A stretch of 64,000 bases of DNA. Source: an uncultured virus (IMG/VR IMGVR_UViG_3300049982_000266). Lineage: Duplodnaviria; Heunggongvirae; Uroviricota; Caudoviricetes. The notes beneath the pieces were generated by a model that did no database searches, was not told the origin of the DNA, and was given only the letters and a program-made list of their open reading frames with translations. The stretch lies in the IMG/VR virus record IMGVR_UViG_3300049982_000266. One strand, 5' to 3'. The position numbers and the translations under genes were made by a program. The first letter of the stretch is position 1; every line of letters starts with the position of its first letter. Of the stretch, positions 13,955 through 41,510 are shown one piece after another.

Positions 13955-13957
13955 CGG

Positions 13958-18659: not shown

Positions 18660-20024
18660 CTAGGCCGGGGCGTCCACGAACCGTCCGTACACGAACGCCT
18701 CGGGACGCGAGACCTCCAGGGCGATCCGCTCCTCCGCGCGCAGCGTCACGACGTTGCGCTCGTAGTTGTCGCGGTTCTCGGTCGAGACCGTGACGGCGAC
18801 CTGCTCGCGGTCGTAGATCTTGGCTCCGGTGCCGAAGCCGCCCAGCAGGAAGCGGCCCTCGACGATCGCCGGGCTGTCGACCACGGCCATGCGCCAGACG
18901 CGCTTCTCGCCGCCGACCGCGACGGACGTGGCGATGGTGTACGCCCCGTTGTCGTCGGTCTCCAACTCGACGTCCTCCCAGTCGAACGGGTGCATGACGA
19001 CACCCGTCGGCTGGAAGTAGGCGAGCATGGCGCGCGTCGCAGCGCGGCGGATGGCGGCCGACTTCTTGTCGCCCGGACGGTCCGCCTGGTTGTAGGTCTG
19101 GACGCCCGGCGTGTTGACGATGCCGGTCATGTCCTCGCCGACGCCCGTGCCGTACAGGATCTCGAAGTCCTCGACCATCTTGATGCCGTCGACCATGTCG
19201 CGGTCGAGCAGGCCGCGCAGGCGCGGCTCGTCGTCCAGGACGTTCCTGTGGACGTCGAGCAGGTGGGCGATCGTGGAGATCGGGTACGTGACAGTGGTCA
19301 GCGTGAGGTCGCTCTTCGGCTTCAGACCGAAGACCTCGCGCCGCTGCACCGCCGGGGCGCCGTTGACGATCGCGAGCGTGTCCTCCTGCTCGCGCTGCGG
19401 GACGACCCGAGCCCGGTTGATGAAGCCGGTCTGGCGCACGCCGTAGAGCACGGCGGCGTTCGTCCGGTCCTGCGGGAAGAGGTCGCGGACCCGGCCCTGA
19501 CGGAGTTCGCGCTGGACGAGGTCGACCTGCTGCGCGCGGCCGAGACCGGGGATCCCGGCGACGAGACCGGCGGTCAGGCCGTGGACGGCCTTGACGCTGA
19601 GGTCGGCCAGGTCGTAGCCCTCGACCTGGAAGGTCTCGCCGAGACGCTTGAAGCCGCTGGCGCGCATCGCCTTGTAGGCGTCGCTCTCGACGTAGCGCTG
19701 GCCGAGGCTCTTCGCCTCGGTGGCGCCCGCGAAGGCGGCACGAGCGGTGTCGGCGGCGTCGCCACCGGCGATCGGCGTGCCGTCCGGCGCGTCGAGGTAC
19801 TGCTGGATGCCGAGCACCTTCTCCTCGGCGGCGATGAGCGAGCGGATCTCGTCCGCCTCGGCCACGGCCTTCAGGTAGGACTTGTGCTCGTCGGTGGAGA
19901 GGACGAACTGGCCGCCCTCCTCGGTCTTCCACGCGCCGCTGAGCCCCTGGATCTCCTGCGCCTTCGTGGCGAGGTGACCCTTCAGTTCGCGGACGCGGGA
20001 CTGGTCGATCTTCGTGTCAGGCAC
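18660..20024 (-). CDS. Major capsid protein, HK97 fold with N-terminal delta/scaffold domain
   Basis: GTG 20024 after GAGAGGG. Coiled-coil N-terminus, 'EAK/SLGQRYVES', 'KPKSDL...TIAH...LDD', 'ILYGTG', 'VMHPFDW' and 'RNVVTLRAEERIAL.V.RPEAFV.G'. Confidence 0.95.
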   Translation of the reverse strand: MPDTKIDQSRVRELKGHLATKAQEIQGLSGAWKTEEGGQFVLSTDEHKSYLKAVAEADEIRSLIAAEEKVLGIQQYLDAPDGTPIAGGDAADTARAAFAGATEAKSLGQRYVESDAYKAMRASGFKRLGETFQVEGYDLADLSVKAVHGLTAGLVAGIPGLGRAQQVDLVQRELRQGRVRDLFPQDRTNAAVLYGVRQTGFINRARVVPQREQEDTLAIVNGAPAVQRREVFGLKPKSDLTLTTVTYPISTIAHLLDVHRNVLDDEPRLRGLLDRDMVDGIKMVEDFEILYGTGVGEDMTGIVNTPGVQTYNQADRPGDKKSAAIRRAATRAMLAYFQPTGVVMHPFDWEDVELETDDNGAYTIATSVAVGGEKRVWRMAVVDSPAIVEGRFLLGGFGTGAKIYDREQVAVTVSTENRDNYERNVVTLRAEERIALEVSRPEAFVYGRFVDAPA

Positions 20025-20187
20025 GGTGGTCCCTCTCGGTACGTGGGCGGCTGTCGCCTGCCCTGCTGACGTGCGGGGGGTGCGTCCCGCCCGGCCAGCG
20101 CCGGGACCGTTCGCTGCTTCACAGCCTCCTGCGCGCTGCGTCCTAACGTCCACTCGACCTCAGGCTGAGGCTGAGGGTTGGCGCGAC

Positions 20188-20220
20188 GGAGCCCCGCCAC
20201 CCGGAAGGGCGCGGGGCTCC
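20188..20220 (-). terminator. Hairpin after protease gene
   Basis: GGAGCCCCGC...GCGGGGCTCC inverted repeat. Confidence 0.65.
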
Positions 20221-20235
20221 GGTCGATCGAGCAGG

Positions 20236-22329
20236 TCAGACGTCGCCGAGCACGACCTCGGCGATGATCGCGTTGCCGCGCGCCAGCAGCGCCGGGTCGA
20301 GCAGCACCTTGCCCTCCATCGCGTCGGGCTCGGCCGTCTTCGCCTCGGGGGCGGCACCGCCGGTGGCAGCAGGGGCCGCAGACGGCGCCGTGCTGTCCGG
20401 AGTGACGCTGGCCGTCGGCAGCGGCTTGTCGGTGTCCACGGCAATGCCAGCGGCCCGCAGGACGGCGAAGAGGTGTTCGGCCGCCGCGCGCAGCCGGGCC
20501 TCGTTCGCGCCGGACAGGACGCGGCCCGCCTTCGTCTCGATCTCGCCGGTGGACAGCCGGGTCTTCACCTGCTGCGCGACGTCGACCACGAGGTCGGGCA
20601 GCGTGTCGAAGGCGTCGACCGGGATCGGCTCGCCGAGGCTCTTGCCCTCGACGACGGTGACCGTCGACAGGTGCACGGGCTCGGGCTCGCCGAGCACGGC
20701 GTCGGCCTCGATCGACTCGGTGTCCAGGGTGTACGGGACGTCGAAGGACTCGACCTCCGTCGGCCCCGGCCCCCACTTGTAGCGGCTGACGATCGCGTGG
20801 TCGTCGAAGGTGGCGACGAGGTCGACGTCGCTCCACTCGTAGCGCGAGTAGCCGTCGCTGTGCGTCTCGACGAGGTCGCCGCGCAGCGCCTTCGCGGCAG
20901 CGGCGCGCACGGCCCGCTGACGCTGCTCGTAGGAGCCCGGCAGCGAGGCGCCGCCGTACATCTTGACCTCGCCGGTGTCGGCGACCGGGACGTCCTTCGT
21001 CTCGACGGCCGGGGTGCTCTTCGCCTCGATCGTCGGGTCGTAGCCGTTGAGCAGGTCGTCGACCGTGATGGGCTCGACGATGAGGGTCTTCTCGCCCGCG
21101 TGGCCCTTGCCGGGAGGGGCGCCGACGGCGTCCTGGTGGCGCAGGTTGCAGTAGCCCTTCGCGCGGGTGCCCATGTGCTTCGAGAGCAGCCGGACGCAGC
21201 GGTCGAAGTCGCCGTCGGTGCCCCACTTGATCTTCGCCGCGCCCTCGCCGGACGTCCAGTAGCGGCGCAACTTCTCGGCGCCGCCCTTGTTCGCGTCGGC
21301 GCCGCCCTCGGCCTTGAACTCCTCGGGGAGCCAGCCCTTCGGCAGCGCGTCGGTGGCGCCGAGCGCGAGCGCGCGGCCGACGATGTGCGCCTTCGCCTCG
21401 ACGCGGTCAGCGGCGCGCGGGTAGGCGCGCACGGCCGCCGTCAGGTCGCCGGTGCTGCGGATCGGGAACGAGCCGTCCGGCAGCGCCGCGTCGCTCTTCG
21501 CCTCGATCGTGCCCATGCCGCCGAGCCCGAGCAGGGTGCGCCGGTGCAGCAGCGCCTTGATCTCGGGGTCGGTGCTGTGCGCCTCGGCGGCGAGTGCCGC
21601 CTGGTCGATCTCGTCCCAGTCGATCTCGCCTTCGGCGGCGGCGTAGAGCGCCGACTCCTCCTCGGTGGGCTCGTCCGGGTCGACGACCTTGACCGGCACG
21701 ACGGTGTCGCCGACGGCGAGGCTCTTGACGCTGAGCGTCATGCTCTCGCTCGCGGCCCCGAAGAGCACCGGGCCGTACTCGAAGAGGTCGAGGCTCTTGA
21801 TGTTGCGGACGCCGTCGCGGCCCTTCGTTGCCTGACCGGGCGGCACGACGTAGCCGATCGACCACTCGCACTCGTCGGTCTCGCTGAAGAACTCGACCGC
21901 CTGGAACGCCTCGCGCGAGCGGGCGCTCTTCATGTTGAAGCGGGTGGTGACGACCAGCGCACCGGCCTCGGCGGGCCACGGCTTGCCGTCCTTCGTCTGC
22001 TTCGGCAGGCGCTCGTCGCCGGGCGGGTACTCCTCGATCTCCTCGGTGCGGGAGACCCAGTCCTTCCAGTCGTGGGACCACACGCCCTTCGGCTTGCGGA
22101 TCTTCAGCGTCTTCGTGTACGCGCCCGGCAGGATCCGGTCGTCCACGTTGTCGACGATGCCGGTGACGCTGACGATCGCGCGCACGAGCCCGTTCGCCTC
22201 GTCGACCTCCAGCAGACCCGAGTGGGGAGCGGCCAGGGCGGGCGTCGCGGACGCGGCCTTGTGCTCCATGCCGGGGATGACGAGAGCCGGGCCGGACCCG
22301 CCCTTGCGCTCCAGCGTCGCAGTGCTCAC
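20236..22329 (-). CDS. HK97-type prohead protease (S78) with long multidomain C-terminal extension
   Basis: 'DNVDDRILPGAY...WSHDW...EWSIGY...LFEYGPVLFGA' core, then 'LPDGSFPI...RALALG..LP.GW', 'LRRYW..GEGAAKI.WG..GDFDRCV' and 'KAGRVLSGANEARL'. Confidence 0.9.
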   Translation of the reverse strand: MSTATLERKGGSGPALVIPGMEHKAASATPALAAPHSGLLEVDEANGLVRAIVSVTGIVDNVDDRILPGAYTKTLKIRKPKGVWSHDWKDWVSRTEEIEEYPPGDERLPKQTKDGKPWPAEAGALVVTTRFNMKSARSREAFQAVEFFSETDECEWSIGYVVPPGQATKGRDGVRNIKSLDLFEYGPVLFGAASESMTLSVKSLAVGDTVVPVKVVDPDEPTEEESALYAAAEGEIDWDEIDQAALAAEAHSTDPEIKALLHRRTLLGLGGMGTIEAKSDAALPDGSFPIRSTGDLTAAVRAYPRAADRVEAKAHIVGRALALGATDALPKGWLPEEFKAEGGADANKGGAEKLRRYWTSGEGAAKIKWGTDGDFDRCVRLLSKHMGTRAKGYCNLRHQDAVGAPPGKGHAGEKTLIVEPITVDDLLNGYDPTIEAKSTPAVETKDVPVADTGEVKMYGGASLPGSYEQRQRAVRAAAAKALRGDLVETHSDGYSRYEWSDVDLVATFDDHAIVSRYKWGPGPTEVESFDVPYTLDTESIEADAVLGEPEPVHLSTVTVVEGKSLGEPIPVDAFDTLPDLVVDVAQQVKTRLSTGEIETKAGRVLSGANEARLRAAAEHLFAVLRAAGIAVDTDKPLPTASVTPDSTAPSAAPAATGGAAPEAKTAEPDAMEGKVLLDPALLARGNAIIAEVVLGDV

Positions 22330-22399
22330 GTGATGCCCTCCTCGGCAGTCGCTTCTCCGGCGGAGGCTACGGCGGCGAGGGGGCTACGGTCGCGCGCAC

Positions 22400-22436
22400 G
22401 ACGACGGCCCGCCCCCAGTGGGGACGGGCCGTCGTC
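22400..22436 (-). terminator. Hairpin upstream of protease promoter
   Basis: GACGACGGCCCG...CGGGCCGTCGTC perfect 12-bp stem. Confidence 0.65.
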
Positions 22437-22651
22437 AGTGCGGCTCAGGCGACGAGGTCGACCTCCCGCTCCCAGGCGGCGCGCTCGGCGCCGCTCATGG
22501 CCGCCCACTCGCGCATCTCGGCGGCGTGACCCTGGCAGGCGCCGGTCTCGGCGTCGAGGCGTCGATCGTGCGGCCGTTGCGAGCGAGCGTCGTGGTCTCC
22601 TGAGGGTGCGGGGGCCGTTCGCCCGGCCCGGCAGGAAGACCGTACCACACC

Positions 22652-23569
22652 TCAGCCGGGGAGCAGGTCTCCGTCGGCGAAGCCCGCGATCGGGCGGCCC
22701 TGCGAAGCGCGCACGAGCGCCCCGGCGCGGCCCAGCGCCCACGTCTCGTGGGGCACGTCGGTCTTGTCCGAGCCCGGCCAGCCCGCCAGCCCGCGCTCGT
22801 ACGCGGTGCTCAGCGCCTTCGCCTCGACCATGCCCTCGGCCATCTGTGCCAGCGACACGAGCGCGGCCGGGGCGTCGTCGGCGAGCCCCTTGCTCTCCCG
22901 CTTCGGCAGGTCGTCGATCGCGGTCAGGTCGGACGCCTTGACGGCCACGCGCTCGTCGGTCGCCTTCCAGCCGTTGCCGTCCTTCGCGTACTTCCGCACG
23001 CGCGCGGCCGGGCCGGTCTTCGAGCCGAAGACAGGCTTGCCGTCCACGCCCGGCACGACGCCGCCGGTGACGATGAGGTCGACCTTGCCTCGGCCGCCGG
23101 ACCACTTCACGAACTGGCCGCGCTTGACCGTGGCCGAGCCCTCCCCGGCCTTGTCCGGGGTCTTGTCGCCCTTGCCCTTGCCGCTGCCGAACGGGGGCGC
23201 CTGCTTCCCGCCGAACGCCTTGCCCTCGGCCAGCAGTGCGAGGTCGTCGGTGTCCTCGAAGAGCCCGCCTCCGACGGTCTCCAGCGTCGGCTCCTCGATC
23301 GGCTCCTCGGCGCCGTCGAGCAGGTCGTCGAAGGACTCCGGCCCCTCGCCGGAGCGCAGCGCCTCGGCCTCGGCGCGCAGCCCGGCGGGCGCAGCCTTGC
23401 CGAACGGCGTGCTGAGCAGCACCTCGGCGGCCTCGGCCTCCTCCACCCCGAGCACGGTCGCGAGCCCCGCCAGCGACTCCACGAGGGCGCCGTTGGGGTT
23501 GCGCACGTCCCACACCCCGGAGCGCATCCAGTCGGTGTTGCCGGGGGTGTCGTCGAACGAGGCGGTCAT
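22652..23569 (-). CDS. Multidomain head-region protein (Tudor/SH3-like domain plus helical domain)
   Basis: AGGAG RBS; 'VKRGQFVKW..GRGKV...GPAARVR.Y' and 'AYERGL...WALGR...DGDLL'. The domains are separated by E-x-K motifs. Confidence 0.65.
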   Translation of the reverse strand: MTASFDDTPGNTDWMRSGVWDVRNPNGALVESLAGLATVLGVEEAEAAEVLLSTPFGKAAPAGLRAEAEALRSGEGPESFDDLLDGAEEPIEEPTLETVGGGLFEDTDDLALLAEGKAFGGKQAPPFGSGKGKGDKTPDKAGEGSATVKRGQFVKWSGGRGKVDLIVTGGVVPGVDGKPVFGSKTGPAARVRKYAKDGNGWKATDERVAVKASDLTAIDDLPKRESKGLADDAPAALVSLAQMAEGMVEAKALSTAYERGLAGWPGSDKTDVPHETWALGRAGALVRASQGRPIAGFADGDLLPG

Positions 23570-23579
23570 GGCGGGCTCC

Positions 23580-26054
23580 TCAGGTCTTCGGCGATGCGAG
23601 CGTGACGCGCTTGCGTGGTTGGGCCACGGTGCCCAGGGCGACGAGCCCCTTGTACCTGTCCTCGCGCTCGCTGTGAGCGACGAGCGCCCTGACCTCCGTC
23701 ATACCAGCGGCTTCCATCTCGGACAGTCGGTGGTGACCGTCGGCAGTCAGAAGTTCGCCCGCCCGGTAGACCAGGAGCGGGGGAGGTACGTCGGCGTTGT
23801 CCTCGCGGGCCTGCCTCAACGACTGGACGCGCTCGTCGTCAGCCGGGTACCGCTGGAACTTGACGGTCCGAAGATCGACCGTCTCCTCGGTGAACCGAAG
23901 GTCGGGGGTGACCATCTCGCCGTCGGCGACGTGTGCCAACTCGTTCACCGCGTGATCGGTGCCGTACGCGGCGTAGGCCGGGTAGCGCTGCTTCACCTGC
24001 TCCCACGAGAGGACTGCCCCCTCTGTGTCGGCCTCGCCCCCCGTACCCCACTCGTTCGGGATCAGGCTGCTCATGCCCAGCGACGCTGCACGCCGGGTCA
24101 GTGCCTTCCGGCGCTCCGGGGTGTCGGCGAGCCGGATCGCGGCGAGCAGGTCAGCGCGGGTGGCGATCGCCCCGGCCGGGGTGTTGATGACCTGCTCGTC
24201 GGTGCTGCCCTCGTCGTCGTCCTCGTCGTAGAAGACGTCGCCCTCGGGGCCGGGGCCGTCGATCATCGGGTCGTACTCGTCGTCGATCGTCGGGCCGTCA
24301 GCCTCGGTGCTGCGCTCGACCTGCCAGGAGCCGACGCCGCCGAGCACGACGACCTCGGCTTCCTCCAGGCAGCCGACACCGGTGCGGGGCGTGGAGAAGA
24401 TCCGCTGCACCGGCACGGTGCCGGTGATGATGTAGGACTCGTCGGTGCTGACACCGCGAGCGAACTGCGCGGCGACCGAGCGGTCGACGCTGAAGGACGA
24501 GAGCGGGCGCAGCGTCACGTCGGCGACGCCCCGGCCGCCGTCGACCGCGTCGACCGCCCACTCCGGCGTGCCGCCGTCGTAGACCTTGTGGCCCCGGTAG
24601 ACCGGGACGTGCGTGATGCCGAGCGAGGCGAAGTAGTCCTGCGTCGCCTCGTACTGCGCGAGCACGAAGGCGCGCATGGAGACCTGCTCCTCGCGAGCCC
24701 GCTCGACGTCTCGGTCCGAGACCCCGAAGTGGTAGTCGACCTCGGCCGTCTCGGTCAGCCCGAAGACCTCCTGCACCGTCTCGTGGAGCACGATGCTGCG
24801 GCCGTTCGCCGACGATCCGAGGGCCCACGCCTGCACGAGCCCGTTGACCCGCTCGGCGCGCTTCTCGGCCCGGAAGGTGTCGGCGTCGACCACGGTGACG
24901 GCGTTGCGCGCGAGCCCGTCGGGGTCCTTCGCCATGAGGGCGTCGAACTGCGCCGTCGGCACGAAGCGGTCGGTGAAGTCGCCCTCGATCACGGAGCCGT
25001 CGAAGCGCTTGCGTGGGGTGCGCAGCAGCGTCATCTCCCCCCGGTCCATCGCCTCCAGGTGGCGCGCATCCTGGTAGGTCAGCATGTCGTCGTCGGCGAC
25101 GTCGTCCATGCGCAGCAGCAGGTCGGCGACGACCTGCGCCTTCGCCACGGAGGCGGCCTCGCGGCGGCCGTCACGCTCCTCGCGGCCCGCCGCGCCGTAG
25201 GCCATGTGCCAGGCGCCGAAGCCCTCGTAGTCCGGCAGCCCTTCCTTGTACGCGCCGACGACCTGCGCAGCGCTGGCGGCCTGCTCGCGGTCGATCCCGG
25301 CGCTCACCGGTGCGACGCCCTCCAGGGGGTCGAAGGTGCCGAGGGTGTCGCCAGAGTCGGCCTCGGGGGCGGCCAAGTTCGCCACGCCGTCGGGCCGTGG
25401 CCGTGTGCCTCCGGCCGGGTCGGTGGTGGGGACGGCCCGCTGAAGCCCTGCGTCGTTGAGCCCGTTGTTGCTCGTCCAGACCATGAAGGCGCCGAGGTTG
25501 TCGAAGCGCAGTGTCGTGGCGGCGTCGTCCCGGCTGGAGCGGACGAAGCCCTGCGGCGGGGTGTCGCCGGTCAGCCACGCGATCTTGCCGTCGGCCGCCT
25601 CCCAGTAGAGGTCGGCTCCGACCGGACTCGCGTCGGGGTCCTGGACGGCGTCCTCGGGCACGTTCGGGCTGTCGGGCGTAGCGCGCTGTGCGCTACGCGG
25701 TCCGGGCTCGTTGCCCTCGGCGTCGGCGATGACCGTGAGGTAGCCGCTGTCCAGCCGCACGACCTTGCTGTCGCTGTCGCGCAGGACGTCGACCCGGCCG
25801 CCCTCGAAGTAGCGCTGCACCGTGCCGGTGCCGCCGCCGAAGATCTTGACCTTCGCGTTGATCTCGATGAAGCGCCCGGCGCGGTCGCGCGGGTGCTGCG
25901 TCTCGCGGAAGGTGCCCCGGCGCTTCACCTGGAGGCTGCGCAGGGCGCGGTCCCGGTGCAGCCCACAGGCGCTCACGCCGCCCAGTGCCAGCACGCCGTC
26001 CAGCAGCGTCTTCGTCTGGACAGTGCTGCGCGAGCAGTACGCACAGCGGCTCAC
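23580..26054 (-). CDS. HPRD-leader multidomain protein with ADP-ribosyltransferase-like and ParB-like domains
   Basis: GTG 26054 overlaps the upstream TGA. Leader 'FRETQHPRDRAGRFIE'; ART motifs 'VYRG', 'LSSFS' and 'EAEVVV'; C-terminal 'PPLLV...DGHHRL'. Confidence 0.8.
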   Translation of the reverse strand: MSRCAYCSRSTVQTKTLLDGVLALGGVSACGLHRDRALRSLQVKRRGTFRETQHPRDRAGRFIEINAKVKIFGGGTGTVQRYFEGGRVDVLRDSDSKVVRLDSGYLTVIADAEGNEPGPRSAQRATPDSPNVPEDAVQDPDASPVGADLYWEAADGKIAWLTGDTPPQGFVRSSRDDAATTLRFDNLGAFMVWTSNNGLNDAGLQRAVPTTDPAGGTRPRPDGVANLAAPEADSGDTLGTFDPLEGVAPVSAGIDREQAASAAQVVGAYKEGLPDYEGFGAWHMAYGAAGREERDGRREAASVAKAQVVADLLLRMDDVADDDMLTYQDARHLEAMDRGEMTLLRTPRKRFDGSVIEGDFTDRFVPTAQFDALMAKDPDGLARNAVTVVDADTFRAEKRAERVNGLVQAWALGSSANGRSIVLHETVQEVFGLTETAEVDYHFGVSDRDVERAREEQVSMRAFVLAQYEATQDYFASLGITHVPVYRGHKVYDGGTPEWAVDAVDGGRGVADVTLRPLSSFSVDRSVAAQFARGVSTDESYIITGTVPVQRIFSTPRTGVGCLEEAEVVVLGGVGSWQVERSTEADGPTIDDEYDPMIDGPGPEGDVFYDEDDDEGSTDEQVINTPAGAIATRADLLAAIRLADTPERRKALTRRAASLGMSSLIPNEWGTGGEADTEGAVLSWEQVKQRYPAYAAYGTDHAVNELAHVADGEMVTPDLRFTEETVDLRTVKFQRYPADDERVQSLRQAREDNADVPPPLLVYRAGELLTADGHHRLSEMEAAGMTEVRALVAHSEREDRYKGLVALGTVAQPRKRVTLASPKT

Positions 26055-28504
26055 CGAAGATCCTTGTTGACCGTGCTGTAGCGGCTCTCGGTCCGGAAGG
26101 TCTCCTCGGTCCCGTCCTCCCAGCGGACCGGCACCTCGTACCACGAAACGTCGCGGCGCAGCCCCTCGAACTTCAGGGCGGGCTCAGCGGTGACCTCGCC
26201 GTAGCGGCCGTCGACCTCGATCTTGTTGCCCGCCACGAGCGACCGTGCCTCGAAGGGCCGGGTGCGCTCGAACTCGGCGCGCTCAGCCTCGCGACGGACC
26301 CGCTCGGCCTCCCGCTCGGCGACGATCTCGCCCCACGTGCGGTAGCCCGCGTAGCCCTTGTCGACGCCGCTCTCGTCGATCGCGACGATGTCGTCCAGGT
26401 GGGCCACGCCCCGGCCGCGCCAGGGGGCGCCAGCCTCCGGGTTCGGCGGGTCCTCGACCGGGATCGAGACTCGGCCGGAGTCGCGGTCCTGCCACAGCAC
26501 GTCGACCCCGTAGCCGTCGCTGGTGACCTTCATCGTGTAGTGCGTGCCCTTCGGCTTCTCCTGGCGGATGCGCACGAGGGAGCCGGGGCGCGGCAGCACG
26601 GCTGCCTCGCCGGTCGTGGCGGCCGTCCAGGCGGTGAAGCCCTCGGGTACAGCGACCTTGTCGCGCTTGCGCTGCTCGGCGGCGGCGGCCTTCGCGGCGG
26701 CCTTCTCGCGCTGCTCTCGGGCCAGGCTCTCGTCCCCGGCGGCGCCGCCCTCGCGGACCTTCGCGCGAGTGAGCACGGTCTGCGCGACGCCGTTGTAGGA
26801 GTCGTGATCCTTGATCGTGCCGCCGAGCACGACGTCGTCGTCGAGATCCCAGTCGTGCGTGCCGGAGGCGAACCACTTGACGACGTTGCCGTCCTCGGTC
26901 ACGAAGGTCAGCAGCGTCGTCGTGCCGTACTGGCCGTCGATCAACTTGCGCCCGGTGACCTTCGCCTTGACGTCGGCGATCTTGTCGCCGACCGCGCCGA
27001 TGTGCTGCGAGTCGGCGGTCGCGTCGGCCTGGCGCTTGCGCTCGGCCTGGACGCCGTCGTGCCGCATCTTCGCGCCGACAGCCGAGATGTAGAGGTTGAG
27101 GTTGCGGCCGGAGATCGACTCGGCGTTCGCCAGGGCGCGCAGGTTGGTCGCGTACTCGCTGTCGCCGTCGATCGTGCGGGCGTACTCGCGGGTGCTGATC
27201 GCGGCGTTGAGCACGTCCTCGTTGTCGAAGGCGTCGCGGATGCGAGCGGCGAAGGCGGGGTCGCCGCCCTTGCGCTCATCCTTGTCCATGTCGCCCGAGA
27301 TGAAGTCCCACACGTAGTCGGCCGTGGGGCTCTTCTCGCCCTTGCGGACGCTGCCGTCGGCGGGCTCAGGGATCGCCGCGTTGTACGCCTGCGCGGCGGC
27401 CTTCGACGTCCAGCCCTTCTCGGCGACGATCGCGAGCGTGACCGTCAGCAGGTCGATCGTGCCGTAGCGGGCCTCTTCCTTCGAGCCGCCGTCGCCCTCC
27501 TCGTCGGGCTGCGGCACCTCCCAGTCCATCATCCAGAGGTTGCTCGGCTTGATGCCGAGGAAGGTCTCCATGCAGTTCGAGCCGACCTGCTGCTGCTGAC
27601 CCTCGGGACCCTGGACGATGTACGTGTCCTTCCGGTCCCGCTGCGAGTGGCAGACGTCGCACTCGCGGGCCTTCGGGCGCTCCAGCAGCGTCGTGCCCTC
27701 GGCGAGCCGGGTGATGAGCCCGGCCTCGGGGTCCCACTGGAGGGTGCCGACGAACGTCCAGCCGTCGTGCCGCACGACCGGGCGGTCGAGGGTCAGGCGA
27801 GCCCGCTCCTCGATCCGGGGGATCGGCAGGCGGTTGCCGTCGGCGTCGGTCGTGATCGTGACCTCGTAGCGCTCGACGTTGTAGCCGAAGCGCTCGGCGA
27901 TGCCAGCGCGCTCGGCTCGCCGGTTCGCCGCGTCGATCTTGGCGATCGCACCGTCGAGGTCGCGAGCGGCGAGTTCGTACTCGGTGTTCGGCTGCGCCTG
28001 CTGCCACTCCTCGTCGGGGATCTGCTCGGTCTCGGTGGTGGGGGCGTCGGGTGCCATGACGTCGTCCACGGCGCGCTGAGCCCGGCCGCTCGGGGCGGCC
28101 GGGACCGGGGCGTCGTCGGGCACCTCGAAGTCGACGACGTCGGGCAGGCTGTCGAGGTCGAAGAGGGTCGCCTCGGCGGGCTCCTGCTCGGGCAGCGCCT
28201 CGACCTTCGTCGGGTCGTCGGTGGGCTTGCCGCCGCCGGGCCGCTCGATGACCGTGACGTGCCCACGGTGGACGCGCACGGTGCTGCCGTCGGCCCGCTG
28301 CACGAGCACGTTGCCGCCGCCCGCGTTGCCGGTCACCGTGCCGGTAGAGCCGCCGAGGATGCGCACGAGGGCGCCGGACTCGATGAAGCGGCCCTCGCGG
28401 TCGCGGGGGTGGTCGGCCTCGCGGAAGAGCGGCTTGCCGAACGCCTTGCCCTCGATCTCGGCGACGACGACGCGTCCGTTGACGAGGGCGAGTGTGCGCG
28501 GCAT
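26051..28504 (-). CDS. HPRD-leader multidomain protein with Zn-ribbon and OB-fold-like domains
   Basis: Leader 'FREADHPRDREGRFIE'; 'CDVCHSQRDRKDTYIV...QVGSNC...FLG'; 'HIGAVGDK...YG...F...GN...WFAS...GTIKDH..YNG..QT.LTR'. Confidence 0.75.
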   Translation of the reverse strand: MPRTLALVNGRVVVAEIEGKAFGKPLFREADHPRDREGRFIESGALVRILGGSTGTVTGNAGGGNVLVQRADGSTVRVHRGHVTVIERPGGGKPTDDPTKVEALPEQEPAEATLFDLDSLPDVVDFEVPDDAPVPAAPSGRAQRAVDDVMAPDAPTTETEQIPDEEWQQAQPNTEYELAARDLDGAIAKIDAANRRAERAGIAERFGYNVERYEVTITTDADGNRLPIPRIEERARLTLDRPVVRHDGWTFVGTLQWDPEAGLITRLAEGTTLLERPKARECDVCHSQRDRKDTYIVQGPEGQQQQVGSNCMETFLGIKPSNLWMMDWEVPQPDEEGDGGSKEEARYGTIDLLTVTLAIVAEKGWTSKAAAQAYNAAIPEPADGSVRKGEKSPTADYVWDFISGDMDKDERKGGDPAFAARIRDAFDNEDVLNAAISTREYARTIDGDSEYATNLRALANAESISGRNLNLYISAVGAKMRHDGVQAERKRQADATADSQHIGAVGDKIADVKAKVTGRKLIDGQYGTTTLLTFVTEDGNVVKWFASGTHDWDLDDDVVLGGTIKDHDSYNGVAQTVLTRAKVREGGAAGDESLAREQREKAAAKAAAAEQRKRDKVAVPEGFTAWTAATTGEAAVLPRPGSLVRIRQEKPKGTHYTMKVTSDGYGVDVLWQDRDSGRVSIPVEDPPNPEAGAPWRGRGVAHLDDIVAIDESGVDKGYAGYRTWGEIVAEREAERVRREAERAEFERTRPFEARSLVAGNKIEVDGRYGEVTAEPALKFEGLRRDVSWYEVPVRWEDGTEETFRTESRYSTVNKDLR

Positions 28505-28543
28505 GGCGGGCAGCCTCTCAGGCTGGACGGGCTTGCGTCGCGG

Positions 28544-28615
28544 TCAGTCCGAGCAGCCTCGGCACTCGGCCGTGACCGGGTTGATCGGGCAGTCACAGGA
28601 GGGGCACTTCTCCAC
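28544..28615 (-). CDS. 23-aa Cys-rich microprotein
   Basis: GAGGGGG-N8-GTG; MEKCPSCDCPINPVTAECRGCSD; fills the intergenic gap exactly. Confidence 0.5.
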   Translation of the reverse strand: MEKCPSCDCPINPVTAECRGCSD

Positions 28616-28620
28616 GTCGT

Positions 28621-28914
28621 TCACCCCCTCGTCGGGGTGCTGAAGACCGCGTCGGCCGGGACGTCGTCGTCGGTCTCCTCGACCGGGACGTCGCCACTCG
28701 TGCCGACGAGGCTGGTGAGGTTCTGGAGCGCGATGAGCACGCTGAGGTCGTCGTCGAGCACGAGCGCGCGGGCTCCGCTGGTCGGGGTGGCGGAGAACTC
28801 CTGCCCCTCGCGGGAGAGCAGCAGGTCGGCGATGCGGTCGCTGCCGCTGACGACGCCGTCGTCGATCGTGACGTCGAAGGGGACGCCCTCGTAGGTGCCT
28901 GTGGCGGTGAACAC
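28621..28914 (-). CDS. Small acidic protein, candidate immunity/inhibitor of the upstream metallopeptidase
   Basis: GTG 28914 after GGAAGGAAG. Directly downstream of the peptidase domain, with its own class-A promoter motif. Confidence 0.6.
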   Translation of the reverse strand: MFTATGTYEGVPFDVTIDDGVVSGSDRIADLLLSREGQEFSATPTSGARALVLDDDLSVLIALQNLTSLVGTSGDVPVEETDDDVPADAVFSTPTRG

Positions 28915-28980
28915 GTGATCTTCCTTCCGGTGGGTGTAGGTGGTGTACGTGACCACCGTACACGTCCTTAGCACGGAGCG

Positions 28981-34900: not shown

Positions 34901-36021
34901 GTCCCCTCGGGGTCGACCTCGACGACGCGGACCTCGTGGCCCTCGCCCCGGTAGTGGGCGTACTCGCCCTCGACGGCCTGCACGGCGAGTTCGCGGCGGC
35001 TGCTCCAGCGCAGCACGCTCCAGCCGCCCAGCCCCTCGCCCCGGCTGTAGCGCTCGGCGCGCTCGCGGCTCTTGCGGGCGCTCTCCCGCTCGGCCTCGGC
35101 GGTCTCGCGGGCGTCGGCCAGCAGGTACTCGCGGGTGTCGACGTAGACCCACGGGTTCGGGTCGGCGCGCTCCAGCAGGAAGCGGTTGTCCTCCTCGCTC
35201 GCCATCTCGTAGGCGAGCCCACGCCGCTCGGCGGTGTTCTTCAGCGTCTTCGTGCGCTCGCGGCCGTCGGGTCCGGCCGGGGCGTCCAGACGGGCGCGGA
35301 AGCGGAAGTAGGAGCCGCCGCGCAGCCCGCGCGACTGGTAGTTGACCTTGCTCCCCTGGAGCACCATCTCGGGCGAGGAGTAGCGGTCGTTCGTACCGGT
35401 CTTGCCGAACTTCGCGGCAGCGATCGCGGCCTCGACCTCGTCGGCGACGCGCTCGTGCTCGGCGGCGCGGCGCTGCTCGGCGGCGGCGCGGTCCTCGGGC
35501 TTGCCGGGGCCGACGGCGACGGCGTGCGAGTAGGCGCGGCTCTTGCTCTGCCGCTCCTCGAAGGTGCCGTCCGGCAGGGTGACACGAGTGAGCCGGGTGC
35601 CCTTCGCGGCGCGACGCGGCTTCGTGGTGGCGGCGCTGGTCGCGTCGTCGGGAGCGGCGGCGATCGGATCGTCGACCGGCAGATCCTCGCGCTCGTCGGT
35701 CTCGTCGACCTCGGCCTCGTCGGGCTGCTCCGGCAGGTCGGCGGGCGCGTCCTCGGGCTTGTCGGTCGGCTGCGCGCCATCGGGCCGCGCCTGCACCGTG
35801 AGGTAGTTGCGGTGGACGGAGATGACCTTGCCGTCGCTGCTGCGCTTGACGGCGATCCGGCCGCCGCCGAGGTTGCGCTCGACGGTGCCGGTCGTGCCCC
35901 CGGCCCCCCAGATCGAGACCGTGGCGCCCTTCTCGATGAAGCGCCCCTTGCGGTCGCGCGGGTGCAGGTTCTCGTCGAACTTCGGCCGCGCGGCCTTGTG
36001 CTCAGGGAGGGTCGCCGTCAT
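28981..36021 (-). CDS. Giant (about 2346 aa) HPRD-leader polyvalent protein with KOW/SH3-like repeats and C-terminal zincin metallopeptidase
   Basis: Leader 'FDENLHPRDRKGRFIE'; six 'L/I..GD.I/V' repeats; C-terminal 'SLHELGHHME...DDF.EPYTGKEY...EVF..G.E'. Start 36021 chosen from promoter spacing (track start 36030). Confidence 0.85.
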   Translation of the reverse strand: MTATLPEHKAARPKFDENLHPRDRKGRFIEKGATVSIWGAGGTTGTVERNLGGGRIAVKRSSDGKVISVHRNYLTVQARPDGAQPTDKPEDAPADLPEQPDEAEVDETDEREDLPVDDPIAAAPDDATSAATTKPRRAAKGTRLTRVTLPDGTFEERQSKSRAYSHAVAVGPGKPEDRAAAEQRRAAEHERVADEVEAAIAAAKFGKTGTNDRYSSPEMVLQGSKVNYQSRGLRGGSYFRFRARLDAPAGPDGRERTKTLKNTAERRGLAYEMASEEDNRFLLERADPNPWVYVDTREYLLADARETAEAERESARKSRERAERYSRGEGLGGWSVLRWSSRRELAVQAVEGEYAHYRGEGHEVRVVEVDPEGTDDRTEEEVGKGKTKAQRIADLKADLLRRAEAEGVSEKSATALRESAERDVRPIAGTALFAVKGGRGEGFSVRHLGTGLGMSLPTANLKSEADAVEFGKRLGALRSAEGAEAFPDTADMGPTIQGWRDGEGRRLLAALIRERAAFDTERGYTGTWAQQQEAEQAQSDARARAQAEADAPLLSDGYTLGVPATEMPDGADLVIQMPEHRADSMTPGGGQGPLLRAQESRGRFVRYTMDGRVEIVNAEGRTEFVRLQGGSRYTRARVFSRPNDAPMPGEQRETRGMTDGGEAFEVVPVADLKPGDRIEYREGQSPVLILSREADGTDQFGRAEIRFQGRREDSGAEGAILFGPTGVARRLTGPAPAGEPAVDLDAPVNLRDLSDDDLTARDEAIIAAARDLKRGDREGRDRFIAMREAISAERNRRQDEAEGVVRRDTMTNPEAIRSLVAALPEAQRGDFADLGDRVADFETDLTSTSLPERPRPGEDGLDPDVRARIQRERDAAAEPVEQAWANLDDDFEALRARLAATDDDAEYDLDRVIDALTATGNDSGFDMARGERRRRRAALRERSVETLRAEYAALGLRDYDEREDYQEEFNRRGLQDDGTAEPRPDADAADRVSEAADAIDGDSRVLQDVRTAASVYADEINEDRDSVNAGALAADLEDVLDAAVREADNQPEREALEALRATILPEHRVSGAEIPGQTSLDDDLTDEPALPPRPVAVADPAPAPTPEPDPAPITVPAPAPAVRLEDSTWGDLLVGDRFVDSSGEGEVVAINEDGSLEVRRNDGLIYSETGDPSEVVQIARTLTPSEIASMVPPPAPHDRRTVATSRPSLPTSRRRIINGYALDTDPAQPEAVRTAAARIRARQPLSADESAALAAALRGLAEADGTPERRRTALLAAVSSLEIASTSAAVNLGGRGRKRPAGASLVRRLVPGSRVRIPATQGYPEIEGTIVSIRQEGRTAIRTFVIQDADGRRVERSLLGGTYVEAAEGMGVPDSGKVAAFDVAVGDVVDFGDGVARTITGRREIPEDPDMILLTSTPGLGDRDEQTLPFGRAVVLTRRFGPEVPEPTEEEQQTRQGTAAEIGVGDLIAGTFGDTGNPYIMRVTEVVPILGGSHYRVTGESHLGRPMQGNYEAGEAVTFLPPLPEDKPIPTPAPVARETIGRGEIKAGDRISIPNTVTGRDVSGIVEYVEDVEGEGDDGEAVSGVRVGLFNGFTTTTYDLYGDEAIQRTGNAGADYVRETILDRRSREIGSVLRSEADKVEAAVLAQINRKIENWRERRDSNFPGSLESYLDRERVYLTTMAARGQGLGISGADANQAMRAMVGNGATPEQQAEMKASLQRLFTQIGERTFDRALQGIRESGIDDMDYASGPFNDRLRRLQGAFRVNPFGIEEAGSQEEIDTRRRLGVVNDYTEEMRVLARTAPVLSGERVIGDVARREPPARDDRPLTERLADYKAALPAIFGTGEVEVTGYATDFDLAALQRGEAPETTTVRRARRETAPDGGPTEATLAQLEVLRSAGREIAEEIDLRVRREIDGPAADEIEAVRQEVDDLSKRITALGDARRDALISERTGGQFTSFNDAMAHLSGLRTRGETPDGDFMAAYRSTSFDVSQEPDYAALLTEHDAAAARLKALRDARPGRTTEEDRQRFQNDVDTMRRAHEQALENAVDAAVRSLSSGRFQTAEGVRANGRFGDADDANAARRLLAEARDQASADPSVKAAFDRLREAQAKRDEANRAQRDEKITLATARARATAAVIAEFREVGPRGAKSMRFLQPGERAESVKALRWAEQHYPTDWLEKAAKQPLTVKTVKRGYYSFGSSVIALSPDGSERVEGAGRYGRVSLHELGHHMERHVPGLAAAEDAFLWSRTTDEGTEIGARTRAAEKNRKQSLGYRSTRFGREVSRRDDFLEPYTGKEYQGDSFEVFQTGIESIFGGSPYIYDDKGQADEDFRAFMLGTLALL

Positions 36022-36064
36022 GCCGGGCATCGTGCCGTGCGGGCTGCCCTAGCGTCGCCCCGGC

Positions 36065-36244
36065 TCACGCCGTCGTGACGTTGCCCTGACGGTCGACCTT
36101 CAGCCCGGCGGCCTCGGCCGCCTTGATGGCCGCCGCCTTGCTCTCGTGGAAGCGCACGTCGCGCATCGGCACGATCGAGTCGCCGAGGGTGAAGGCGTAC
36201 GCCGCGTTCGCGACGAGGTACCGGAGACGCATCCCGAGTGCCAC
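36065..36244 (-). CDS. Small hypothetical protein (59 aa)
   Basis: AGGGAG RBS and GTG 36244, strong GC3 bias (MALGMRLRYLVANAAYAFTLGDS...), preceded by a class-A motif. Below the track length cut-off. Confidence 0.6.
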   Translation of the reverse strand: MALGMRLRYLVANAAYAFTLGDSIVPMRDVRFHESKAAAIKAAEAAGLKVDRQGNVTTA

Positions 36245-36301
36245 TGGTGCTCCCTGCTAGATCCGGCTCGCTCGGCCGGGCTGAGAGCAGCGTACACCCG
36301 C

Positions 36302-38749
36302 TTAGCCGGTCCGGCGCCTCGGGGCTGCGACGAACTTGCCGGACGCCTTCGCTCGGTGGAGAAGCCTGCACCGGCAGTTCGCGGTCTCGCGCACCGGCGC
36401 GAGCGGGTCACCGGGGAAGCGCAGCAGCGCCCCGCCCACCTCGAAGGGCTTGCCGACGTCGCGCTTCTGGCCGTCGGCCTTCGTGTGCGTGTCGCGGACC
36501 AGCGAGTCGCGACGGGACAGCCACGAGCGCTCGACGTCGGTCAGCGTGCCGTCGCGCTCCAGGACGGCCACCACGGCGTCGCGAGCGCCCTCCAGAGCGG
36601 CCGTCGTGGTCTGCACCGCGAGCCCCTGCGCCCACGAGCGCTGTGCCTCGGCCAGCGCCCGGATCGCGTCGGCGATCGCGGCCACGTCGGCACCGGCCTG
36701 GTCGAGTGCGTTGATCGTGTCGGCGATGATCCGGGCCTGTCGCGACGCGCTCTCGCCGACGAGCCCCATGACGCCGTCGACCACGCGCCCCACGGTCCGC
36801 AGGATCTTCGCGGGCAGCGCCTTGCGCTCCACCGGCAGCAGGTCGCGCAGCAGCGCCTCCACGGCCTCAGCAGCGGCCGGATCGACGACCTCCTGGACGG
36901 CGGTCACCGCCTCGGTCTCCCAGCGGTCCTCGTCGGCGATGCGGACCGCGTCGAGCGCCTTCTCCCCAACACGGGTGTCGACGGCGTACTGCGCCTCCCA
37001 GTGGCGCGTGCCCTTGCGCTCACGCGGGCTGCCGAGGCGGGCCAGGCTGCGCTCGACCTGGCGCTCGGCCAGAGCCTCCAGGGCGGCCGTGACGCCGCTC
37101 TCGGTGGTGGCCCTCAGCCCGTCGTCGAGCGTGGACTCCTGCCTGTCGCCCTCCAGGTCGTCGGCCTTGACCTCGCGCGGCCGGACCTGGATCTGCCTCC
37201 GGATCGGGATGACGCGGGCGCCGAGGCTCTTGCCCTCCAGCAGCCCCTTCGTGCCGAGCCCGCCGGTGGCCGCAGCGACCGCGTCGGCCGGGCTCATGCC
37301 GCCGTTCTCGCGGGCACGGGCCTGCTCCTCGACGGCGTCCGCGCCCGCTACCGGCTCGGAGGCGGCAGCGTCGTCGTCCGGCGCGGCTGTGCCCGTCGGC
37401 GCGTCGGCGGGGGCAGTGCCGGTCTGCTCGGGCGGGGCGAGTCCGAGGGCTTCGGCGTCAGCCTCTCGGGTCGGGATCGGCGTCTTGCCAGCGGCGACGT
37501 AGAGGGCGCGGGTGATCGCCGTGTCCTCGATGTCGTCGGCCTGGCCGGAGAGCACGGCGTAGGAGCGGATGCTGCGCAGACCGGCTGCGACCTCTTCACG
37601 TGCCTCCAAGCGCTTCGCTGCGGCGGCCCGCTGAAGCACCTCAATGTCGGAGGTGTCCAGGTAGCCGAAGAGGTTGTCCTCGGTGTCGGCGTCGAAGGCC
37701 GAGACGATGAGGTCGTTGTGGTTGCGCTGCGTCCCGGTCCAGAACGCGTAGCCCTCCTCCTCCGCGTTGGCGAAGGTGCGGTCGGCCGCGTTGCCCAACT
37801 GCGACTCGGGCACGCCGAAGGCGACCAGCATCTCGACCTTCGCGTTGCGCGAGGTCGCCTGGTACTGCATGTCGCGGGGGCGTGCGGCGACGTCCACGAA
37901 GGACAACTCGCCGGAGATCACCGACAACTTCCCGGCCTCGGTCGGGCCGCGCCCGAACTTGCTTTCGAGGCGGTCCATCTCGCCGGTCGTGAGCCCGGCG
38001 CCGCCCTTCTCGGGCGCCTTGACGCCGAGCACGCCGCCGGGGCGCCCGTCGTTGCGCATGAAGGACACGTTGTAGAGGCGGCTGAAGTAGTCGAGTTCGA
38101 CCGACAGCCCGGCGGCCTCCAGCGGCGTCATCGCGGCGTAGGGGTCCAGCGGGTGCGGCTCGCGGATCCAGATGACCTTGTCCCAGTCGACGTGGCGCGG
38201 CGTGCCGCCGCCGACCGGGTCGACCTCGACGTGGCTGACCGGATCGGCGCCGGTGCCGGGCATGAGGCGCGTGCGGCCGGGCGGCAGCAGGTCGAGCCGG
38301 GTGATCTCGCCACGGTTGCTCATCGTCTTCTCGACGAAGGCGCCCTTGCGGCTGAGGAGCACCTGCACGCTCAGGCGCTTGCGGAACGCCCGGCCGGTCT
38401 CCAGCGGGTTCGCCTGCCGGTTGAGCACCCGGTACAGCGGGTGGTCGTCGAGCGGGTCCCCGCCGGGCTCGATCCCCTCGCGCAGCCGGAAGGGGAGCCG
38501 GGCCTGGTTCGCGGCGATGACGTCGACCGGCTTGAACACCCACACGACGCGCTCGTAGCCCTCGGCGATCGCGCGCTCGATCGGCCACGCCTTCGCTCGC
38601 TGCTGGCCGGGCAGGGTGACGCCCGCCGAGGCGATCGCGGCGTAGTAGGACGAGAGGACGACCTTCTCCTCCATGCCCTCCGGCCGACCGTCCTTCGAGG
38701 ACAGGTTGGCCGGGCGCAGGGTCGGGAAGAGCGTGCGGCCCCGAGCCAT
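36302..38749 (-). CDS. Portal protein fused to MuF (phage Mu gpF-like) minor head domain
   Basis: HK97-type portal motifs 'DHPLYRVLN..NP', 'F.RNDGRPGGVL', 'VAFGVP..LG...TFANAEE'. C-terminal 'WLSRRDSLVRDTH..ADGQ...F.VGG..LRFPGDP...ETANCRC'. Confidence 0.92.
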   Translation of the reverse strand: MARGRTLFPTLRPANLSSKDGRPEGMEEKVVLSSYYAAIASAGVTLPGQQRAKAWPIERAIAEGYERVVWVFKPVDVIAANQARLPFRLREGIEPGGDPLDDHPLYRVLNRQANPLETGRAFRKRLSVQVLLSRKGAFVEKTMSNRGEITRLDLLPPGRTRLMPGTGADPVSHVEVDPVGGGTPRHVDWDKVIWIREPHPLDPYAAMTPLEAAGLSVELDYFSRLYNVSFMRNDGRPGGVLGVKAPEKGGAGLTTGEMDRLESKFGRGPTEAGKLSVISGELSFVDVAARPRDMQYQATSRNAKVEMLVAFGVPESQLGNAADRTFANAEEEGYAFWTGTQRNHNDLIVSAFDADTEDNLFGYLDTSDIEVLQRAAAAKRLEAREEVAAGLRSIRSYAVLSGQADDIEDTAITRALYVAAGKTPIPTREADAEALGLAPPEQTGTAPADAPTGTAAPDDDAAASEPVAGADAVEEQARARENGGMSPADAVAAATGGLGTKGLLEGKSLGARVIPIRRQIQVRPREVKADDLEGDRQESTLDDGLRATTESGVTAALEALAERQVERSLARLGSPRERKGTRHWEAQYAVDTRVGEKALDAVRIADEDRWETEAVTAVQEVVDPAAAEAVEALLRDLLPVERKALPAKILRTVGRVVDGVMGLVGESASRQARIIADTINALDQAGADVAAIADAIRALAEAQRSWAQGLAVQTTTAALEGARDAVVAVLERDGTLTDVERSWLSRRDSLVRDTHTKADGQKRDVGKPFEVGGALLRFPGDPLAPVRETANCRCRLLHRAKASGKFVAAPRRRTG

Positions 38750-41483: not shown

Positions 41484-41510
41484 GGGGCGGATGATCCCCC
41501 TGTCGCGGGG

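Follow-up and report, generated by a model that had tools for sequence, protein, structure and literature searches.

An E-x-K motif enriched in the head proteins of an uncultured high-GC tailed virus as a candidate recognition motif of its S78 head protease

The stretch of DNA analyzed here, hereafter the window, comprises 64,000 nucleotides from an uncultured tailed virus (IMG/VR record IMGVR_UViG_3300049982_000266), with a G+C content of 72% and nearly all genes on the minus strand. Profile searches with Pfam and PHROG recognized a phage head module in it, and our analysis concerns a short motif in the proteins of this module, E-x-K followed by a small residue, as a candidate cleavage signal. 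On the minus strand, to which the coordinates given throughout refer, the module comprises the large terminase (39502-41775), recognized by a profile match; a portal-MuF fusion of 815 residues (36302-38749); the cargo proteins p2349 (2349 residues, 28981-36030) and p817 (817 residues, 26051-28504); p854 (23580-26144), an open reading frame (ORF) of 854 residues that appears as an 824-residue call, P0433, in the database; the 305-residue protein p305 (22652-23569); the S78 head protease (697 residues, 20236-22329); and the HK97-fold major capsid protein (18660-20153). A protein of 117 residues, p117, also belongs to the module. Tail genes, including that of a 1699-residue tape measure, come after it.

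A sequence-only reading of the window had proposed that E-x-K recurs across all head proteins as a single proteolytic maturation code. With expected counts derived analytically from each protein's own composition, we determined that the capsid protein, protease, p305 and portal together hold 26 occurrences against 8.0 expected (Poisson p 3.6e-7), distributed as 13 against 3.2 in the protease, 6 against 2.1 in the portal, 4 against 1.2 in the capsid protein and 3 against 1.5 in p305. The 36 other window proteins of at least 80 residues contain 14 against 13.3 expected, which bears out the excess over tail and accessory proteins that this reading anticipated; the tape measure is likewise at chance (3 against approximately 2.7, the tail fibre lying outside the scored gene set). 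Every site named in that reading exists in the sequence, and further ones occur in the protease (LERK/G and VEAK/A, the slash marking the putative cut between P1 and P1'), in the portal (LESK/F and RERK/G) and in the delta region of the capsid protein, which has three. The claim of a motif common to all head proteins holds for these four core proteins. Since the cargo set (p854, p817, p2349 and p117) is at chance for whole proteins, with 7 occurrences against 9.1 expected, and fits only at N-terminal sites, the claim overstates the spread of the motif.

The E-x-K signal is both real and specific, and none of eleven control patterns (KxE, DxK, ExR, EK, ExxK, ExxxK, KxxE, KxxxE, QxK, AxK and DxR) is enriched in the four core head proteins. 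As a guard against choosing a motif after the fact, an unbiased scan took in every combination of residue pair and spacing expected at least twice, 1072 in all, and E-x-K ranks first of these in the core head proteins; ranks 2 and 3 fall to ExxxL and KxL, both parts of the same E-x-K-x-L motif. The corresponding rank of E-x-K in the rest of the window is 889 of 1550. When all 64 kb are translated in six frames, the extended pattern E-[AG]-K-[AS]-[FL]-G turns up just five times, once each in the capsid protein, the protease, p305, p817 and the portal.

The motif is most abundant in the protease, which matches the S78 family in Pfam (PF04586, 29 bits against a cutoff of 21, E 1.4e-6) and, in PHROG, the head maturation protease family phrog_80 (E 1.2e-12) as well as phrog_6439. 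H86 and S157, the latter within WSIGY, are invariant in 62 aligned homologs, and a BLAST alignment places H86 at most two residues from H65 of the HK97 protease, which, together with S114, we take to be catalytic there. An AlphaFold model (m7b7dc0a308d2; 62 of 120 homologs in the alignment, those with large labelled inserts excluded; mean predicted local distance difference test score, pLDDT, 74.7) shows a confident S78 domain at approximately residues 43-203, followed by small helical and beta domains joined by low-confidence segments. Segments with pLDDT<50 contain 11 of the 13 E-x-K lysines, compared with 2 of the 26 other lysines (Fisher p 3e-6), and 11 of the 13 glutamates in these segments stand two residues before a lysine.

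Several of these sites are conserved. The N-terminal MEHK/AAS (K24, 22249..22269), in the pLDDT<50 segment 1-42, has Lys in 118 of 118 homologs, with Glu at P3 in 70 and Leu at P4 in 89. At the end of the S78 domain, adjoining the low-confidence segment 204-215, lies a site without E-x-K, TLSVK/SLA (K202, 21715..21738), whose Lys is shared by 115 of 119 homologs; the catalytic domain lies between K24 and K202. Farther along, the linker at 20953..21030 holds IEAK/S, VETK/D and GEVK/M (K437, K445 and K456), all within the pLDDT<50 segment 436-459, and at K456, 69 of 84 homologs carry Lys and 47 carry a P3 Glu. VEGK/SLG (K563, 20632..20652) also falls in a low-confidence segment, as do IETK/AGRVLS (K600, 20512..20541; segment 597-605) and, in the C-terminal tail, PEAK/T and MEGK/V (K664 and K674, 20299..20349; segment 636-677). 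The K600 column is Lys in 97 of 118 homologs, with Glu at P3 in 89 and the residues A-G-R after the Lys in 86 to 112. K258 and K313 lie in modelled helices.

Across 119 protease homologs, E-x-K occurs 764 times against 412 expected, exceeding 1.5 times expectation in 81 of the 119 and falling below expectation in 11, and eight control patterns range from 0.43 to 0.94 times expectation. The folded S78 domain is depleted (57 against 102) and the remainder enriched (706 against 307). The homologs carry inserts that vary in kind and place, most often a 2H/LigT phosphoesterase (39 of 45 scanned), and also Nudix, LysM, intein and DUF5824; among homologs P0014-P0117, one insert lies N-terminal to the protease domain. 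Kitasatospora relatives have a shorter protease of 380-393 residues, made up of the S78 domain plus a part matching window residues ~495-645, which identifies residues 208-495 as an insert. The module joints of the protease coincide with candidate sites. Inside the 39 inserted LigT domains, E-x-K does not depart significantly from expectation (3 against 6.0, p 0.15), the low raw density being due to low Lys content; the nearest flanking site on the downstream side is within 40 residues in 22 of 39 cases, and that on the upstream side in 15 of 39, which is no more than suggestive. Pfam searches at relaxed thresholds returned nothing usable for the C-terminal part of the protease.

The capsid protein is encoded by an ORF of 497 residues, of which the database call P0121 covers 454, starting at V44, and an N-terminal delta or scaffold region is present. 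It matches the HK97 capsid family (Pfam PF05065, E 1.6e-34), and hhalign aligns it with HK97 gp5 at a probability of 99.9 over 255 columns, beginning at residue 217. The proposed delta-domain boundary, TEAK/SLG (K148 of the ORF, 19701..19721), adjoins the conserved capsid body. All 120 family members keep the Lys of K148, with [SGT]-L-[GSA] after it; at P3, 45 of the 120 carry Glu, and Gln is common. The tetrapeptide K/SLG is also that of HK97 at its presumed cut, K103/S104. An alternative or additional site is LSVK/AVH (K188, 19581..19601; residue 145 in the 454-residue numbering), where the Lys is again invariant (120/120) and, by sequence counting, stands at an HK97-like distance from the LR.GRVRDL motif. 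Upstream, the three delta-region sites (ELK, EHK and EEK, 19818..19988) keep E-x-K in 50, 23 and 62 of approximately 120 family members, and for the capsid family E-x-K reaches 2.97 times expectation. As a separate observation, FGLKPKSD at residues ~272-279 (region 19318-19341) aligns with ALKPESD of HK97, which we take to hold the crosslinking Lys169, and the C-terminal ENRDNYERN aligns with EDRDNFVKN; these alignments suggest that HK97-type chainmail crosslinks may exist.

The portal and MuF parts lie in one polypeptide, arranged as portal (~56-446), linker (447-533) and MuF (534-803). The portal profile match is strong (PF04860, E 1.1e-39) and the MuF match weak (PF04233, 20.9 bits, under the cutoff of 29.6), with phrog_2662 spanning 43-796 and the head morphogenesis families phrog_2468 and phrog_3517 spanning 541-807. 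The AlphaFold model (m98e3bb211fb4, pLDDT 78.3) was built from 61 sequences, namely the window's own and 60 of 120 homologs. At the N-terminus, MEEK/VVL (K29, 38654..38674) lies in the low-confidence segment 1-55; its column is Lys in 96 of 121 sequences with Glu at P3 in 72 of 121, and the conserved form is E-x-K/[VA]-V-L. The linker (37151..37411; low-confidence segments 447-456 and 458-533) contains two sites, LEGK/SLG (K507, 37220-37240) and REVK/ADD (K528, 37157-37177). The K528 column has Lys in 63 of 77 sequences, Glu in 47 and Ala at P1' in 42, giving a family form of R-x-x-E-T-K/A-A. The remaining sites, K264, K579 and K643, are in folded parts of the model, and K264 is replaced by Arg in 82 of 121 relatives and belongs to a structural DR[ILV]E.[RK]FG motif. 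Taken by itself, the portal model shows no significant association of E-x-K lysines with low-confidence segments (3 of 6, against 5 of 21 other lysines). Some portal-MuF relatives (P0278, P0283, P0284, P0356 and P0357) carry a C-terminal ADP-ribosyltransferase (PF03496), acetyltransferase (PF00583/PF13508) or PF07737 domain; judging from these matches, such extended proteins would be MuF-toxin-like fusions attached to the portal.

In p305, AEGK/AFG (K117, 23210..23230) is one of the five copies of the six-residue form, and VEAK/ALS (K251, 22808..22828) is a second site. Residues 2-71 of p305 correspond to a separate protein of 77-81 residues in 10 Kitasatospora or Streptomyces relatives, which places AEGK/AFG at a fusion joint. 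Pfam at relaxed thresholds yielded nothing usable for p305, and leads from Atlas structures are weak (Tudor-like and DUF5824; scores 0.81, template modeling score below 0.5).

The cargo proteins p2349, p817 and p854 have in common an N-terminal HPRDxxGRFIE motif and a beta-rich domain, which in p2349 occupies 35761..35982. A search of the full library recovered 201 representatives of this HPRD domain at E<=0.001, mostly N-terminal in proteins of up to 7217 residues; Pfam at relaxed thresholds offered nothing usable, leaving the domain without a Pfam name. It may be a head-targeting or DNA-binding module. Upstream of the HPRD His stand IEGK/AFG in p817 (K20, 28436..28456; 12 residues before the His) and PEHK/AAR in p2349 (K12, 35986..36006; 11 residues before it), and in p854 the leader reads LQVK/RRG followed by HPRDRAGRFIE (25860..25943), with Gln replacing Glu. 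Among the best 150 of the 201 representatives, 118 have the motif in their first 120 residues, and 66 of these 118 have an E-x-K upstream, most commonly 11 residues before the His. With the window's three proteins excluded and at least 14 upstream residues required, 108 members remain, and 91 of them have a Lys 9-16 residues upstream of the His, preceded at P3 by Glu (50), Gln (13) or Asp (8) and at P4 by Leu (37), Val (13) or Trp (9), and followed at P1' by Ala (41), Val (20) or Arg (15). A conserved N-terminal site in the cargo family therefore exists.

Processing of the cargo as polyproteins, as the sequence-only reading had it, finds no support here, for these proteins show no internal E-x-K enrichment and p2349 has an HExxH motif of its own. 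This motif is HELGHH at residues 2232-2237, within SLHELGHHMER (residues 2230-2240; 29311-29343). A zincin-like peptidase, such as has been proposed to process phage polyvalent proteins from within, may form the C-terminus of p2349, whose last 299 residues have no Pfam match at E<=1 other than DUF3435 (E 0.2). Three further observations concern these proteins. Residues ~495-604 of p854 (23580-24800) weakly match the dinitrogenase reductase ADP-ribosyltransferase family (E 0.003-0.006, under the cutoff). The core of p854 (324-612) occurs in Kitasatospora relatives as stand-alone, often duplicated genes of 340-355 residues. The N-termini of the protease (MSTATLERK, 22303-22329) and of p2349 (MPGMTATLPEHK, 35995-36030) both read T-A-T-L and then E-x-K, which may be a leader common to the two.

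Independently of the E-x-K counts, we built a scoring matrix from positions P5-P3' of the capsid boundary site in 119 relatives, excluding the window's own site, and scanned all called window proteins with it. The capsid site K148 scored 16.1 bits, followed by K563 (15.6), K202 (14.9) and K24 (11.8) of the protease, K507 of the portal (15.1) and K251 of p305 (11.2), ahead of the first non-head match at 10.3 bits. The best five non-capsid matches in the window are thus all in the protease, portal or p305, and the five matches at or above 11 bits compare with a mean of 0.59 in shuffled sequences, with none of 300 shuffles reaching five.

The nearest cultured phage is Streptomyces phage Gilgamesh (MN234216), whose capsid protein is 43.5% identical and whose head genes follow the same order: a portal-MuF fusion, a giant protein of 4624 residues, an S78 protease with an inserted domain, and the capsid protein. 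Among the 23 Gilgamesh proteins examined, E-x-K is enriched in the protease (7 against 1.75) and capsid protein (6 against 1.98), and the tail proteins are at chance (tape measure, 1 against 3.05). Its E-x-K/S sites in capsid and protease include IEEK/SLG at the boundary, and LEVK/AAR precedes the HPRD motif. The Gilgamesh protease is annotated as a "hydrolase" and by eye has a Nudix-like signature, whereas the window's protease has small helical domains instead; another protease homolog, P0038, has a Pfam NUDIX match. For Gordonia phage ChisanaKitsune, the counts are 7 against 1.7 in the capsid protein, 9 against 4.4 in the portal and 6 against 4.7 in the protease. Across 21 genomic loci (L005-L025, the distant L026-L029 being excluded), the protease (n=16) has 50 against 25.7 and the capsid protein (n=20) 64 against 25.0, and the other ORFs are at chance: 33 against 39.4 for upstream plus-strand ORFs (n=91), 25 against 23.8 for downstream plus-strand ORFs (n=101) and 18 against 21.0 for minus-strand ORFs. 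Relatives repeat the enrichment in capsid and protease and not in tail, portal or cargo as a whole. At P3, the same loci vary between Glu and Gln: the Kitasatospora capsid proteins read Q-x-K/SLG, and the short proteases have ExK and QxK in approximately equal numbers.

Relatives of the capsid gene occur on contigs of 100-165 kb as well as in Streptosporangiales, Kitasatospora and Streptomyces chromosomes. A contig of 127,106 bp belongs to the database cluster of the window's own capsid protein, and the record of one relative, from Microtetraspora malaysiensis, is labelled a plasmid; the window may derive from a large phage or from a phage-plasmid. As for the neighboring genes of the window, the longest terminase ORF begins with an Arg-rich extension of ~250 residues without a profile match, its PHROG match starting at residue 254, and the true start is probably further downstream. 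The tail genes encode a collagen-repeat tail fibre protein and the tape measure, the latter with apolipoprotein-like helical repeats (12308-13957 and 2397-7496).

Comparison with characterized systems places these sites in a known enzymatic context. The HK97 capsid protein gp5 reads TFNK/SLG at residues 100-106 and T5 pb8 reads RHLK/AVN at residues 156-162, at what we take to be the exact cut positions. A 2026 paper (PMC13517437), citing Duda 2013 and Zivanovic 2014, states that the S78-family proteases of both phages cut after Lys. HK97 (gp4/gp5) and T5 (pb11/pb8) resemble this phage in protease family (PF04586), in capsid fold and in having an N-terminal capsid delta or scaffold region; they cut after Lys with Ser or Ala next, and the K/SLG of HK97 is also present in the capsid protein, protease and portal described here. 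They differ in that their proteases are single-domain proteins of ~210-225 residues, compared with 697 residues and several domains here, and in having no Glu at P3, no portal-MuF fusion and no giant cargo proteins.

For a single motif acting on many head proteins, a parallel exists in another protease clade. T4 gp21 recognizes L/I-x-E sites, and capsid-targeting leaders of T4 internal proteins are removed. In SPN3US and phiKZ, the small-x-Glu motif of gp245 is common to capsid, protease and packaged or ejected proteins, and N-terminal propeptides are removed (PMC10052503). The likeness consists of one protease motif serving many head proteins, with several copies within propeptides; P1, however, is Glu in those phages and Lys here. 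The Lys that precedes the HPRD domain in most family members may mark a T4-like leader with putative roles in packaging and putative removal, with the difference that in the cargo described here a conserved domain follows the putative cut, whereas in T4 the targeting leader itself is removed. Polyvalent proteins and MuF-fused toxins are likewise giant, multi-domain, head-associated proteins or MuF fusions to other modules for which processing is expected. For phage polyvalent proteins, Iyer et al. (2017, PMC5512222) proposed cleavage by metallopeptidase domains within the proteins themselves, and a survey of Microbacterium phages (PMC7302621) describes proteins of >4400 residues as "likely processed"; the passages concerned propose metallopeptidase self-cutting or name no site, and give neither a Lys motif nor a role for S78. 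No published E-x-K or Lys motif for actinophage heads was found in the literature library searched.

Our findings make it fairly probable that a subset of the sites represents a clade-specific signal, (hydrophobic)-E-x-K plus Ala, Ser or another small residue, which the phage's own Lys-specific S78 head protease preferentially recognizes, cutting after the Lys. This subset would take in the capsid boundary together with the delta region, the linkers and domain flanks of the protease, the N-terminus of the portal and its linker to MuF, the joint in p305 and the N-terminal leaders of the cargo. In that event, prohead assembly would bring together the protease, the capsid protein still carrying its delta domain, p305, the portal-MuF fusion and the cargo with its HPRD domain, and the enclosed protease would cut exposed linkers. 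The capsid body would be freed from the delta region at TEAK/SLG, perhaps further in, and the delta region chopped; the protease would cut itself on either side of its catalytic domain (K24 and K202) and separate its small C-terminal domains from one another. Cuts would also fall in the flexible linker from portal to MuF (K507 and K528) and at the portal N-terminus (K29), p305 would be split at K117, and leaders of 10-30 residues would be taken off the N-termini of the cargo proteins. The earlier proposal that the motif marks domain boundaries agrees with the 11 protease lysines in predicted linkers and with the sites in the portal-MuF linker, at the portal N-terminus, at the edge of the capsid body and ~11 residues before the HPRD domain; it does not extend to portal K264, K579 and K643 or protease K258 and K313, which are probably structural rather than cut sites.

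A number of results weigh against this interpretation. The cuts themselves are putative, drawn from motif statistics, placement and conservation: what was computed is enrichment, placement in predicted linkers, conservation and family assignments, and from these we infer both that the sites are cut and that the S78 protease cuts them. The low pLDDT that defines the linkers of the protease is a mere proxy for flexibility, and the 764 occurrences in protease homologs are not independent events, as the homologs are inter-related and much of the excess stems from a few conserved columns (query K24, K600, K456, K339 and K313). Individual sites depart from the pattern as well: K202 has Ser at P3, many capsid boundary sites have no Glu there, K563 is unique to this phage, its column being occupied in just 16 of 120 sequences, and portal K507 is also unique to it and not conserved in relatives. 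The capsid boundary cannot be aligned with HK97 K103, the hhalign alignment covering the window protein only from residue 217, and the distance from K148 to the first alignable motif is 69 residues, compared with 26 in HK97. E-x-R is also enriched in the capsid family (2.16 times expectation), and the delta-region sites could reflect helix or coiled-coil packing. In the portal family, E-x-K is barely enriched (280 against 240.6, 1.16 times), much as KxE is (1.11 times), and the bodies of the cargo proteins carry it at chance, as does the giant Gilgamesh protein gp48 (6 against 5.8). At loci L005 and L007, Gln likewise occupies the capsid site, yet the protease has ExK/QxK counts of 5/0 and 7/0; as the groups are closely related, the 21 loci give no clear sign either way on co-variation of Glu and Gln at P3 between capsid and protease. 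Finally, neither HK97 (1, 1 and 2 against 1.1, 1.1 and 1.7) nor T5 (4, 1 and 2 against 4.3, 1.3 and 1.9) shows E-x-K enrichment in its head proteins; Lys with a small P1' residue is thus a family trait, and a P3 Glu preference would be new and has no experimental precedent. On the sequence comparisons available, this actinophage clade would favor Glu at P3 while tolerating Gln, a trait not shared by S78 proteases in general.

Conservation downstream of the sites bears on a different explanation, in which the motif is a short linear motif for binding or assembly, for instance one by which linkers and leaders dock to the inside of the capsid, to the portal or to the delta domain. Residues after the Lys are conserved in ETK-AGRVLS of the protease, in E-x-K-A-R-R before the HPRD domain and in E-x-K-[VA]-V-L at the portal N-terminus, and the conserved part of the cargo comes after the Lys, unlike the targeting leader of T4, which is removed. 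We nevertheless regard docking as rather unlikely, in that an invariant Lys followed by a small residue fits the Lys specificity reported for HK97 and T5 (PMC13517437) as well as the K/SLG of HK97. In addition, the sites are placed between swappable modules, in flexible linkers that are not otherwise conserved, a setting that suits cutting more than docking.

Structure or composition could also yield such an excess as a by-product, through e/g positions of helices or coiled coils or through charged linkers in Lys-poor, high-GC proteins. The HK97 delta region is helical, and three of the capsid sites lie in the delta region of a family in which E-x-R is raised too; moreover, portal K264 sits in a structural motif dominated by Arg, and protease K258 and K313 are in modelled helices. 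However, only the Glu-first i,i+2 spacing is enriched, and EK, ExxK, ExxxK, KxE and DxK are not; 11 of the 13 protease sites fall outside helices, in low-confidence linkers; the six-residue form is confined, over all six frames, to single copies in five proteins; and proteins of the same composition, among them tail and tape-measure proteins, show no excess. An origin of this kind appears improbable. Processing or modification by another agent, such as a host protease, the metallopeptidase-like end of p2349 or some modification directed at lysine, is highly improbable, for although p2349 carries HELGHH and metallopeptidase self-cutting has been proposed for polyvalent proteins (PMC5512222), the C-terminus of p2349 has no family match, no proteins show the motif more strongly than the S78 protease and its classical substrate, the capsid protein, and in relatives these same two proteins are enriched with the neighboring upstream genes together at chance.

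Returning to recognition by the S78 protease, we tentatively put forward a broader picture, which may well not hold in full: in this family of actinobacterial phages of roughly 100-150 kb, the protease would be a self-cutting, cargo-carrying polyprotein, with E-x-K/small sites flanking exchangeable C-terminal modules (2H phosphoesterase/LigT, Nudix, LysM or small helical domains) that are released in the head for delivery to the host. The same code would detach MuF and any fused toxin from the portal ring and trim the leaders of giant HPRD cargo proteins, and Glu at P3 would represent a clade-specific change in S78 specificity. If the sites are cut, the composition of the mature head could be predicted from sequence, including the capsid N-terminus, free MuF, free protease-borne domains or enzymes and the ends of the giant ejected proteins. 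If true, this would extend the principle of one protease, one motif and many head proteins, familiar from T4 and phiKZ-like phages, to HK97-type proteases, and it would offer a concrete and cheap test for a large, almost unstudied group of phages and prophages of Streptosporangiales, Kitasatospora and Streptomyces. It would also suggest that the protease gene serves these phages as a slot for delivering host-directed enzymes.

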